IMG/VR virus record: IMGVR_UViG_3300005805_000071
Coordinates: 14,519 to 78,518 of that record
Origin: a virus
Lineage: Duplodnaviria; Caudoviricetes
Length of the DNA stretch: 64,000 nucleotides
Strand: one strand, 5' to 3'
The notes under the pieces were generated by a model. It saw nothing but the letters and a program-made list of their open reading frames with translations, was not told the origin of the DNA and did not search any database. Made by a program: the position numbers and the translations under genes. Positions 19,146 through 44,605 of this stretch are shown piece after piece. Position 1 is the stretch's first letter, and each line of letters opens with the position of its first letter.

Positions 19146-22100
19146 TTATACCTGATCAAATGTCACAGCATTAGTATCCCAAGAAGCCTCATTATCATCA
19201 AATTTAAACTCAAATCCTTCTGGAGGTGGTGGAACATCATATACTATATCAACAGTAGGATATGCATAACCAGATCCCCTGTTATTTACAACAACTCTAG
19301 AAACACCTACCTGTGCTCTTGCTTGAGCATCAAATCCAGTTAAAGAGTTGAAGGATATGATTGGTTCTGATGTATATCCTTCACCACCAGAAGTTAACTG
19401 AATATTTTTAATTCTTCCATTAATAATTTCAGTTAAAGCTTCAGCACCATTTCCTAAAACACTTCCAAGATAATCAAAAGTTATTAATGAATTCGAAGAT
19501 TCGATAACCGCAACAGTTCTATCTTCAAGTTCCCCTTCTATACGTAATTTATCTCCAATTTCAACTGGAGGAATTACATCTACAGAAATAACATCAGTAT
19601 CAGAACCAATATAAGAGAATGCAACAAAAGTAGAACCAGCTCTGGGAACCTCAGCAAAAATAACTCTAGAACCAACAAGTTCAAATGCAACACCAGGTTC
19701 CTGAATAACTCCATTTAAGGATATAATAATATTATTTTCTGGTCTAATTGTTGATGATTGAACTCCATCGGTAAGTGTTAGTGAATAGAAAGAATCATTC
19801 AACTTCAAGTTGAAAGTACTTCTAAGTGAATCAAATTGGAATCCAATATCATCTAACTGGCGTAATTTTCCTAGATATACTGCACTAAACAATGATCCAA
19901 TTGTAGGTGGTTCTGAGAATTGAACAGTATCACCAAATATAGTATAACTGGATCCAGGTGGTTGTAAAACACCATTTAAGAATAGTAATAAATGACCGTC
20001 TTCTGGTGGGAAATAAGGATCGCCATTATTTTCAGTTAACGCAAAAGTATCTTGTATTCCATTAAATCCAACAAAAGATCTAGAAACTCTACCAGCAACT
20101 TCGACTACGTTTGTAACCGCTGCTCTATAGTTATATGAAGCAATAACCTGAGAATATGGGGAAAGATTGCCAACAACATTTCCTAGATATAGTCGATATC
20201 CTAATCCAATTTGAGATATCTTAGTTATTGTTGCATATGATTCTGTTGCAGTAATTAATACATTACTTATAGTACCACTTCCAGATGGGAAAACTTCACC
20301 GTCGTCAAAATAGGAAACTACGTTACCAGTAACAAAATCATCTTCTGTAAAATTAGCAACATAGATATATGCTTGAGAGTCATTATTAATAAGTTCTACA
20401 TTTAGAATTTTTGCGGAACTTGTTGTAGGAATAAGACCATTCACTTTAAATAATGTAGATCCAATTGGGAATTTTGAACCAACCTGAGCATTTATATCAA
20501 CCGTTAGCCTTACTGTTCTTGTTGTTCTAATAATATCATTTATACCAACAAGAGTTCCTTGAGGATCAACAATATCAATATAATGAGAAGTATTATTTGA
20601 ATATACTAATCTAGAAGGTAAAAACTCTCCTTGCAATGCTTCAGTCTCTAGAGTTAATTTGGAACCAGTATTCGATAAAATTGGACATACATTATAATCA
20701 AAATTATTTGAAGTGAGATCAGCACCAGAATATAATCCACTGATATATTCATCAGATCCAAACGATCCTATAACATTTACTAGTTGAACTCTATTTGTAA
20801 TTGATGTAATTGTAGCTAAGTAACCATTATCATCTATTAGTGTGTGACCTACCGAGAACTGTCCAGAAGTCATAGACACATCGATATAGCTAACAAATTC
20901 TCCGTTTTCAGTTGATACTATAGTACCAGTGGTTCCAGGGAAACCCTGTCTAGTTACACTTGTATTATGTGAGAATACTTCATCAGGATCATTATATTGT
21001 ATTTCTAATCTACGAAGAATATTTTTAACATATCCCCTATTATTAATTATAGATTCAACTTCAGCAAATTCACCGCTAGTAGATCCATAGATATAATCTC
21101 CAACAGATAAAGATCCTTTAATTGGTGTAAATGGTTCTCTTGAAGGATATGATTTTTGTGGGACAGATAAAGAATTTACACCAATAATTTGATTTATCTC
21201 TATATAAGAGGAATTATTCAATGTACCTAATAAAATAGACATATTATCAGTAATGAAATTCTGGATTTCTGTCAAATTCGATCCAGTGATACTAATATTT
21301 GGATCTGTATATGCGTATTGTCCAGAAGCCGTTGCTGGAGAAGTTAGAGTTTCCGCAACTGCAAGTTTCATATAATCCAATACTCTATTATATGCATATA
21401 TACTTTGAACTAACTCTCCCTCCAAAGATACAATCGTTCCAGTTGTAGCATCGATATAGGATAACGTAGCATTCAGTATACCAGTATTGCCGTTAGTAAG
21501 TAAATCATACACAATAGCATCAATAATATATCCCATATCACGTAAACATTTTGCATTTCCACCAGGAATACTAAAACTTGGATATTGGTTTAATGTTCTT
21601 TGAAGTGATTCGTACTTAATATATTCTTTATTAAATAGGAGCAGTTTAGCTGCATCTCTGTATAGTTTATTTGCATTGCTTTCCGACTGTCTAGTAACAT
21701 GATTCATGTTACCATTGGTTACAGCAGTAGTTAATATTGAGAATAGTGTGGTAATTGATGATGCTACGTTAGCGCAAGTTGGATTGCTCGGATCCACCTC
21801 AATCGTATTATCAATGACTTGAGTAAGAGATGAATAACCACCAATAGTAATGGATTGATTACGCATAGCTTCAATTGCCATGTCTCTTGCTTGATTGAAA
21901 GCATAATTCGATTGAATTTGTTCTCCAGAGAGATATGAATTAATTGTATATACTTGAGAATAATCGAAGGTACGAGCATTACCACCATTTCTCAAATCAT
22001 AGATTATAGCATCTAAAATATCTACAATATCATCAATACAATTTTGATTACCATTAGGAATTGTAAATGCTGGATATGCATTTAACATTCTACCAACAGC

Positions 22101-43512: not shown

Positions 43513-43683
43513 TCAGAACTCGATCTCTTGCAGGGTAGGAATACCCAGAGCGGTCTCAATAGCAGGCGACTCGATATAGTCGAAACTGCTCACATTGTCG
43601 CTGGCGATAACATCGAGAATGCTGAGAATCTCGTTGCCAGTGTTACCTTGACGAAGCATGGAGATGAGAACTTGCTTAGACAT
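43513..43683 (-). CDS. Small early protein (56 aa); not in ORF track
   Basis: MSKQVLISMLRQGNTGNEILSILDVIASDNVSSFDYIESPAIETALGIPTLQEIEF*, with an A/C-rich leader. Confidence 0.8.
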   Translation of the reverse strand: MSKQVLISMLRQGNTGNEILSILDVIASDNVSSFDYIESPAIETALGIPTLQEIEF

Positions 43684-43746
43684 AGTTGGGTTGTTCGTTG
43701 TTAGTTAGTGTGTGTTGGTTAGTTTATAGTCATGCCCAGGACTATC

Positions 43747-43797
43747 TGTGGAAAAAGTTAATTAGTTTTCCACAGGTTTGTTATATTCTGTGGAAAA
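43747..43797. promoter_or_regulatory. DnaA-box array 1 (3 x TTTTCCACA)
   Basis: Boxes at 43747-55 (reverse), 43766-74 (forward), 43789-97 (reverse); each fits TT(A/T)TNCACA. Confidence 0.7.
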
Positions 43798-43799
43798 CT

Positions 43800-44117
43800 T
43801 CAGGCGATTCGCATACCTGAGAAGAAAGGAATTACACCGTAATCTTTAGACTGGAAGAACCATTGATAGTTCTTTTGGAAGATACCTTCGTCGCCAACTC
43901 CATGCTCTTTGAGAATAGCATTGAGGCGAGACTTTGTGGTGTTAGATTGCCAACCACCATCGAAAAGTTCGATCCATGTTTCACCAATTCGGGCGATCAG
44001 ATTGCCGTGCAGATAGACATCGGAGACGTTGGAACATGCAACGACTTCAGTGTTATCGAGTTTCCAATCTTTACCTGCAGTGATAGCAGCATTCATGAGA
44101 CGTTCGATCTTACGCAT
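43800..44117 (-). CDS. Early hypothetical protein (105 aa)
   Basis: Start moved to MRKIERLMNAAI; the track start lies inside the promoter. VYLHGNLIA...FDGGWQSNTTKSRLNAIL. Confidence 0.8.
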   Translation of the reverse strand: MRKIERLMNAAITAGKDWKLDNTEVVACSNVSDVYLHGNLIARIGETWIELFDGGWQSNTTKSRLNAILKEHGVGDEGIFQKNYQWFFQSKDYGVIPFFSGMRIA

Positions 44118-44184
44118 GGGAGGCGATTTAAGAGGGGTTTGGTATGTCGGGGGTGGGGTTGTTTCCCTTCCCTCCGATGCACTC

Positions 44185-44238
44185 AATATAGGCGATTCTG
44201 GGGGGCACGTCAAGCGTTTTCTGATCAGTGCTGCTTAT
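44185..44238 (-). promoter_or_regulatory. Sigma70-type early promoter with upstream box
   Basis: TTGACG-N17-TATATT; box ATAAGCAGCACTGATC at 44223-44238. Confidence 0.8.
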
Positions 44239-44271
44239 CATTGAGATAAGGTGATTTTATGAGTCTGAGGG

Positions 44272-44300
44272 TTGCAATCTTCGAGAAAGTGTGATAGACT
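44272..44300 (+). promoter_or_regulatory. Divergent plus-strand sigma70-type promoter
   Basis: TTGCAA-N17-TAGACT with an extended TGn motif; no plus-strand ORF follows. Confidence 0.6.
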
Positions 44301-44394
44301 GCGGACTTAACTTGCATCTCTGAGTGACCTTTACTGTACGTTTCTTAAGAGTTAAACAGAACGCATACATATGTTTTTTTAGGTATTTTTAAAC

Positions 44395-44445
44395 TGTGGA
44401 AAAAGTGCCTTAATTTTCCACAGTTTTCCGCATACTTGTGGAAAA
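44395..44445. promoter_or_regulatory. DnaA-box array 2 (3 exact + 1 single-mismatch)
   Basis: 44395-403 (reverse), 44414-22 (forward), 44424-32 TTTTCCGCA, 44437-45 (reverse); same 10- and 14-nt spacing as array 1. Confidence 0.7.
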
Positions 44446-44446
44446 C

Positions 44447-44605
44447 TCAATTATACCTACCTTGTGATCTTTCGTAGAGTCGCTTATCCACATGATCGAG
44501 GTATTCATCAGGGGTGAGTATATCATCCCAGTCTAATGTATCCCTGTATTGTTGTTCATGAGAGAGTGCAATCGTACAGGGGTCAGTATAGGTGAAGTCG
44601 TTCAT
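44447..44605 (-). CDS. Small hypothetical protein (52 aa); not in ORF track
   Basis: MNDFTYTDPCTIALSHEQQYRDTLDWDDILTPDEYLDHVDKRLYERSQGRYN*, starts 4 nt after the upstream stop. Confidence 0.65.
   Translation of the reverse strand: MNDFTYTDPCTIALSHEQQYRDTLDWDDILTPDEYLDHVDKRLYERSQGRYN

Follow-up and report, generated by a model that had tools for sequence, protein, structure and literature searches.

The viral DNA analyzed here carries two arrays of exact TTTTCCACA sites, in the form of the cyanobacterial DnaA box, which bracket one early cassette made up of an AT-rich motif, a leader of about 250 nt and gp96. The analyzed stretch, called the window below, comprises 64,000 nucleotides (64 kb) of a 78.5-kb record of a T4-like cyanomyovirus with an estimated completeness of 44%; its closest isolates, S-CREM1 and S-SZBM1 (Kyanoviridae), are Synechococcus phages that infect the estuarine Synechococcus CB0101. 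In the current view, T4-like phages replicate and transcribe their early genes independently of the host initiator. Lambda, P1, F and pSC101 borrow the host initiator through consensus DnaA boxes, but these are temperate or plasmid replicons with initiator sites of their own, and we know of no DnaA dependence described for any lytic T4-like phage that carries a complete replisome. The conservation of the arrays in abundant marine and estuarine cyanophages suggests that they may serve as a viral read-out of the replication status of the host. It is conceivable, at a chance that we place just short of even, that Kyanoviridae dock DnaA on these arrays of oriC-type grammar, thereby sensing the replication competence of the host and timing either the early cassette or the first replication round. 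If true, this would be the first T4-like lytic phage dependent on host DnaA, and it would connect cyanophage development at the molecular level with the light- and cell-cycle-driven replication of the host. Among the papers searched we found none linking DnaA boxes and cyanophages; new here are the comparison of box grammar with host clusters, the slot shared with the terminators of relatives, the link to the gp96 neighborhood with its limits, and the negative melting and skew results. The features of the locus are as follows.

43722–43745, minus strand: promoter-like motif ATAGTCCTGGGCATGACTATAAAC, between array 1 and the next gene (43513–43683)
43746–43799: array 1, exact TTTTCCACA boxes at 43747–43755 (−), 43766–43774 (+) and 43789–43797 (−)
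43800–44117, minus strand: gp96, 105-aa Kyano_Gp96 protein (PF23790, E = 1.3e-41; phrog_554)
44118–44367, minus strand: non-coding gp96 leader of about 250 nt, containing the block GCAAGTTAAG(T/C)C
44147–44177, minus strand: 5'UTR hairpin GGAGGGAAGGG...CCCCACCCCC, within the gp96 leader
44213–44185, minus strand: sigma-70-type promoter TTGACG-17-TATATT, within the gp96 leader
44368–44393, minus strand: AT-rich motif reading TTTAAAAATACCTAAAAAAACATATG on that strand, adjoining array 2
44394–44447: array 2, exact TTTTCCACA boxes at 44395–44403 (−), 44414–44422 (+) and 44437–44445 (−)
44447–44605, minus strand: 52-aa ORF (phrog_18655), upstream of array 2

By exact-match search, all six TTTTCCACA copies reported in the initial annotation were located in the two arrays (43747–43797 and 44395–44445), and its observation that the window holds no further copy can be extended to the full 78.5-kb record, in which zero copies lie outside the arrays. 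In both arrays a reverse box is followed after 10 nt by a forward box and after a further 14 nt by a second reverse box; the spacers, read by eye, are identical at 6/10 and 4/14 positions, which agrees with the claim of one geometry with differing spacers. The expectation by chance, roughly estimated before at 0.01 exact copies per 700 bp, was computed at about 0.014. Moreover, dinucleotide-preserving shuffles of the 64-kb window (n = 100) contained a mean of 1.27 and a maximum of 4 copies of TTTTCCACA, and 0/100 reached six, while box variants with one mismatch were not enriched in the window (24 found vs. 30 expected). Two further elements described for array 2 were also present, namely the weak box TTTTCCGCA at 44424–44432 (+) and the adjoining T-rich tract at 44370–44393; TTTTCCGCA is the sole tandem partner in the window, at a spacing of 1 bp, and no double box spaced by 2–3 bp occurs there.

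All credible genes at the locus are encoded on the minus strand, along which the order is 52-aa ORF, array 2, AT-rich motif, leader, gp96, array 1, promoter-like motif and small gene. Array 2 begins 1 nt past the stop codon of the 52-aa ORF and array 1 begins 2 nt past that of gp96, and in the window and its relatives alike the arrays start 1–11 nt past the preceding stop codon, ahead of promoter-like motifs. In the relatives L155, L188 and L201 the same slot is occupied by a GC-rich intrinsic terminator instead. The AT-rich motif, which may be promoter-like or architectural, also accompanies the box arrays of S-PM2, S-CREM1 and many cyanomyovirus loci from IMG/VR. With regard to neighboring elements, the sequence GTCCTGG-N3-4-ATGAC-(A/T)TTAAAC recurs 3' of gp96 in many relatives, whether boxes are present or absent, and this GTCCTGG..ATGAC motif probably marks a class of phage promoters in which the -10 element is TATAAA-like. 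Just 5' of the 52-aa ORF preceding array 2 there is a sigma-70 promoter close to consensus (TTGACA-17-TATACT, 44613–44585, minus strand). Many cyanomyoviruses conserve the gp96 leader with its GCAAGTTAAG(T/C)C block, a TTGACR-17-TATATT promoter and the 5'UTR hairpin, the arms of which covary in L133 and L153; the hairpin could be a regulatory RNA element, and no Rfam family or tRNA was matched at the locus or leader.

Arrays of the same box recur well beyond the window. A scan of IMG/VR for the inverted box pair returned at least 120 stretches, mostly cyanomyovirus-like, and among the matches listed 56 carried a gp96 homologue within the fetched piece. In loci found via gp96 alone, arrays are positioned at −255 to −330 from the gp96 ATG and/or 3–61 nt past its stop codon; at the homologous upstream site they persist as gp96 identity declines from 86% to 39%, and in several lineages, again down to 39% gp96 identity, they are found on both sides of the gene. 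S-CREM1 possesses arrays at both homologous sites, arranged as forward-N12-reverse downstream and as forward, forward, N13, reverse upstream. Orthologues of array 1 with the same 10-nt spacer were found in L152, L172 and L179, and the array-1 site holds forward-reverse only in S-CREM1, L153 and L161. At the array-2 site the window reads forward-reverse-forward on the gene strand (reverse-forward-reverse on the plus strand), and elsewhere this site holds forward-reverse-reverse, forward-forward-forward (L172, L179 and L189) or one box with a weak one (L084 and L120). In 68 distinct loci ascertained via gp96, the exact box was present 48 times and any single one-mismatch variant at most 8 times. 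Thus, the exact boxes are kept in relatives while spacers, number and orientation drift, which points to a reader of single asymmetric (monomeric) sites. The initial annotation had taken conserved spacing with diverged spacers as a sign of protein binding, and had listed a third box and spacing not kept by relatives among the results that would refute its reading: boxes do persist while spacers diverge and the arrays themselves are retained, but the three-box geometry is not conserved in S-CREM1 and others, and on this point alone the check went against the reading.

The inverted arrangement of the boxes also allows for a role without any protein, in which hairpins would serve as terminators or protectors of mRNA ends, or in which the arrays would be PeSL-like recombination cassettes that shuffle the gp96 module. 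If transcribed, the folds are stable (−16.5 to −22.7 kcal/mol, z of −2.9 to −5.3), and they occupy the slot that holds an intrinsic terminator in relatives. However, a terminator scan detected no intrinsic terminator at the arrays, no T-run follows the stem, the polarity is U4-stem...stem-A4, and the arms are invariant without compensatory change while the loops diverge. Furthermore, the all-direct arrays of L172, L179 and L189 stand at the homologous site and cannot fold, which argues against a hairpin. As for recombination, PeSLs are known in T4-like phages (PMC2839356, PMC4122927), where small early genes of the hyperplastic region are separated by these short, conserved inverted repeats, beside promoters and flanking exchangeable modules; the arrays resemble them in these respects, and the module between the arrays is found in some relatives and missing from others. 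In PeSLs, which are numerous, the stem has the form of a terminator (A3-4G3-loop-C3T3-4) and a consensus sigma-70 promoter is joined to it (PMC2839356, PMC4122927). By contrast, the arms of the phage arrays are the host DnaA box, no T-run is present, and the nearest sigma-70 promoters (44213–44185 and 44613–44585) are well away from the arrays. Only two such cassettes occur in 78.5 kb, with one cluster per genome rather than many, and no more than 9–10 bp of identity would be available for recombination. Taken together, a role without protein is regarded as highly improbable.

The DnaA box consensus is TT(A/T)TNCACA (TTWTNCACA), and the 9-mer of the window fits it in the form used by the class Cyanobacteriia. 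The comparison was made with the photosynthetic members of this class, and the identity tests relied on features outside the motif search, i.e., form, flanks, tandem spacing and inverted-pair spacing. The double box TTTTCCACA-N2-3-TTTTCCACA was found in 100/151 Cyanobacteriia genomes, in many of them beside dnaN, vs. 0 for the reversed-pattern control. In 30 cyanobacterial oriC-like loci, TTTTCCACA occurred 166 times and TTATCCACA seven times, so that the strict T at position 3 of the phage box is a cyanobacterial habit and the assignment to a cyanobacterial type in the initial annotation is upheld for the sequence form. The flanks are likewise in accordance: in 445 distinct phage instances A is preferred at −2, G is found at −1 with a frequency of 0.63 and a purine at +9 with 0.90, and the boxes of cyanobacterial oriC-like clusters show G at −1 with 0.56 and G/A at +9 with 0.93. 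Among the direct pairs in the phages, eight are spaced by 3 bp and one by 2 bp, so that 9/14 fall at 2–3 bp, and this tandem spacing is also habitual in host clusters. In E. coli, double boxes 2–3 bp apart are the rule for DnaA binding in vivo (PMC11317965). With respect to inverted pairs, reverse-N9-11-forward is the commonest at host clusters (11/15), and the N10 pair of the window falls into this class. By contrast, the commonest phage arrangement is the convergent forward-N12-15-reverse pair, represented in the window with N14, which was present in 0 of 30 host clusters and in 3/121 genomes of the phylum. The proposed comparison with host oriC spacing therefore bears out the reverse-N10-forward pair and, in relatives, the 2–3-bp tandems, but leaves the forward-N14-reverse pair without a host counterpart. 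The phage arrays thus share with the cyanobacterial oriC clusters beside dnaN the exact TTTTCCACA, the G at −1, the G/A at +9, the 2–3-bp tandems (phage relatives) and the reverse-N9-11-forward pairs (window), and they differ in having three boxes each, in flanking a phage gene, in the convergent pair and in the lack of an adjoining easily melted element. Judged by form, flanks and part of the spacing grammar, the identification of the arrays as putative DnaA boxes is well supported, and on the same grounds DnaA probably binds them, which we consider quite likely. Finally, an inverted-repeat scan of genome contigs gave diverse bacteria among the matches listed, and the count was near chance for the size of the database.

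A different phage- or host-encoded protein might instead read aGTTTTCCACAR, the match to the DnaA box then being coincidence or mimicry. This would be in line with the phage-specific convergent pair and with the distribution of the clusters, which were found only in T4-like cyanophages with gp96 (8/8 with gp96; 4/4 without gp96 had no cluster). The eight complete Kyanoviridae genomes with gp96, namely P-SSM7, S-RIM8, S-SZBM1, S-CREM1, Syn9, S-PM2 and two IMG/VR records (putatively S-RIM50 and S-CAM22), each contain 4–8 exact copies in one cluster, with a gp96 homologue within about 3 kb of it in 8/8. The Prochlorococcus myoviruses P-SSM2, P-SSM4, P-HM1 and P-HM2 (4/4) have neither cluster nor gp96; the T7-like cyanophages P-SSP7, Syn5 and P60 have zero boxes, the siphovirus P-SS2 has two scattered copies and T4 has no cluster. 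Against a separate reader stand the flanks, the strict T at position 3, the 2–3-bp tandems and the N10 divergent pairs, all of which match host clusters, and we regard it as quite improbable. As a candidate reader, gp96 itself was rejected: its AF2 model (pLDDT 93.5) gave no Foldseek match in the PDB at E ≤ 0.001 and a best VIA-align Z of 4.2, so that no solved fold and no DNA-binding fold was matched, and box-less homologues exist in S-B05, the podovirus S-CBP42, Vibrio phage VEN and Pseudomonas phage phiPstEGF. Hence, gp96 is a neighbor of the arrays and not a convincing reader. The association has limits in the other direction as well: roughly two in three gp96 loci lack a box within 1.5 kb, some of these carrying a GC-rich intrinsic terminator in the slot past gp96, and no box is present in 40 kb of S-B05, a partial Kyanoviridae genome with gp96, which indicates that the arrays are dispensable. 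In P-SSM7, S-RIM8 and the putative S-RIM50 and S-CAM22 the cluster is located 0.4–3 kb downstream of gp96, so gp96 is not always the gated unit. As regards the protein family, the box-less homologues of Vibrio and Pseudomonas T7-like phages sit in early regions, and Kyano_Gp96 homologues are found among the first early genes of T7-like Pseudomonas, Vibrio, Dickeya, Ralstonia and Burkholderia phages. An invariant TTKSRLNA motif is present, and Kyano_Gp96 is, by homology, a widespread early phage protein.

If DnaA is the reader, the arrays could mark a DnaA-assisted start of replication, with DnaA opening or organizing DNA beside the AT-rich motif, or with the leader transcript acting as primer. 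Transcript-primed replication is known from oriF and oriG of T4. Consistent with an origin, each complete genome has a single cluster, placed at a conserved site in the same hyperplastic region, the boxes show oriC-type grammar and a non-coding leader follows the arrays. For Syn9, a single theta origin has been predicted (review PMC2984593), and in S-PM2 an AT-rich repeat block follows the array. However, the flank in the window is not easily melted: the T-rich flank ranks in the top 5% for meltability at 40 bp, but at lengths of 80 and 150 bp it drops to 17% and 39%, respectively, and in P-SSM7 and S-RIM8 0 of the six easiest-melting sites were at arrays. Similarly, neither the window nor these two complete relatives show an inflection in cumulative GC skew, which is monotonic and carries no origin signal. 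Moreover, the box beside the AT-rich motif flips its orientation among relatives, unlike in a basal unwinding system, arrays are present on both sides of a gene, and four Prochlorococcus myoviruses as well as many gp96 loci lack arrays. An origin function is therefore considered unlikely.

The arrays could also act on DnaA itself, either by late titration in the manner of datA or by DARS-like nucleotide exchange, and thereby alter host initiation. As putative perfect high-affinity sites the boxes would suit a sink, and six per genome multiplied by the replicated copies would exceed the 23–44 exact copies per comparison genome, a range taken from five Cyanobacteriota genomes of 1.8–2.5 Mb without photosystem genes, which are not candidate hosts. 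By this copy-number arithmetic a sink is possible only late in infection: one infecting genome offers just six sites early, when control of the host would matter, and the tight placement at gene borders beside promoter-like motifs would be needless. With E. coli DARS1/DARS2 and datA (PMC6868365) the arrays have in common that they are non-origin clusters of 3–5 DnaA boxes including opposite orientations, and the inverted pairs recall DARS boxes I/II (PMC6868365). The DARS core, which acts on ADP-DnaA, has boxes I and II head-to-head 5 bp apart and box III head-to-tail (PMC6868365), whereas the boxes of the window are spaced by 10 and 14 bp in alternating orientation, and no IHF- or Fis-type region was identified. 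All in all, action of the arrays on DnaA itself appears improbable.

We favor the explanation that the arrays gate or insulate the early cassette, since they fill the spacer between stop codon and promoter-like element on both sides, relatives carry terminators in the same slot and DnaA is known to act as a roadblock. In E. coli, DnaA represses and activates transcription and blocks elongating RNA polymerase, including roadblock termination (PMC11317965). Following this, we propose that the host initiator and transcription factor DnaA would occupy both arrays at the borders of the cassette and, once bound, would gate its transcription, possibly as a bidirectional roadblock to read-through from upstream genes, by tuning the adjacent promoter-like elements or by bridging the matched pair of arrays across 650 bp; the cassette would then be expressed according to the DnaA status of the host. 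The E. coli promoters and roadblock terminators regulated by DnaA (PMC11317965) similarly have a small number of high-affinity boxes, which border transcription units and lie near promoters, whereas here matched arrays flank one cassette of a lytic T4-like phage and are known from sequence. The sequence shows the sites and where they lie, their conservation and a grammar of oriC type, and from these we infer DnaA occupancy and gating. Should DnaA bind, the chances that it gates the cassette are almost balanced; as an explanation of the whole locus, gating by DnaA arrays is put forward tentatively, at somewhat less than an even chance. Among the three functions suggested in the initial annotation, control of flanking transcription fits the position best, a DnaA sink would be confined to late infection, and an origin finds no support in the melting and GC skew of the window. 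The arrays also open two questions to testing, namely where and how cyanomyoviruses start or time their replication and what makes infection dependent on light and on the cell cycle of the host. Each array offers a defined target of 54 bp, both for binding assays and for mutagenesis by existing cyanophage genetics.

Some observations concern S-PM2 and more distant genomes. In S-PM2 (AJ630128.1), two tRNA genes annotated in GenBank overlap the box array at 19177–19333 (L436 3440–3596), and neither is found by ARAGORN; the coordinates of the tRNA annotation look shifted. About 200 nt 3' of this array, at L436 3700–3880, AT-rich inverted and tandem repeats (AAATCTCAAAATC... and three copies of TTCTTAAGATTTAAGATT) are present, and a repeat block of this type is absent from the window. 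Among non-photosynthetic Cyanobacteriota (L346–L348, L422, L425–L428 and L406–L416), clusters of TTTTCTACA (in low-GC genomes of about 2 Mb) or of TTATCCACA were found upstream of dnaN. An assignment of the low-GC TTTTCTACA genomes to Prochlorococcus and of the high-GC TTATCCACA genomes to Synechococcus was ruled out as they have no photosystem reaction-centre genes, and a test of host/phage co-variation was dropped because these non-photosynthetic Cyanobacteriota are not hosts. A scan of IMG/VR for the TTTTCTACA inverted repeat gave 49 unrelated matches, none with gp96. DnaA-box dialects appear to be lineage-specific, with photosynthetic Cyanobacteriia using TTTTCCACA. Additionally, an unrelated group of IMG/VR viruses with a GC content of about 0.49 (L357, L361, L367, L370, L373 and others) carries about eight TGTAGAAAA/TTTCTACA iterons in one short region.
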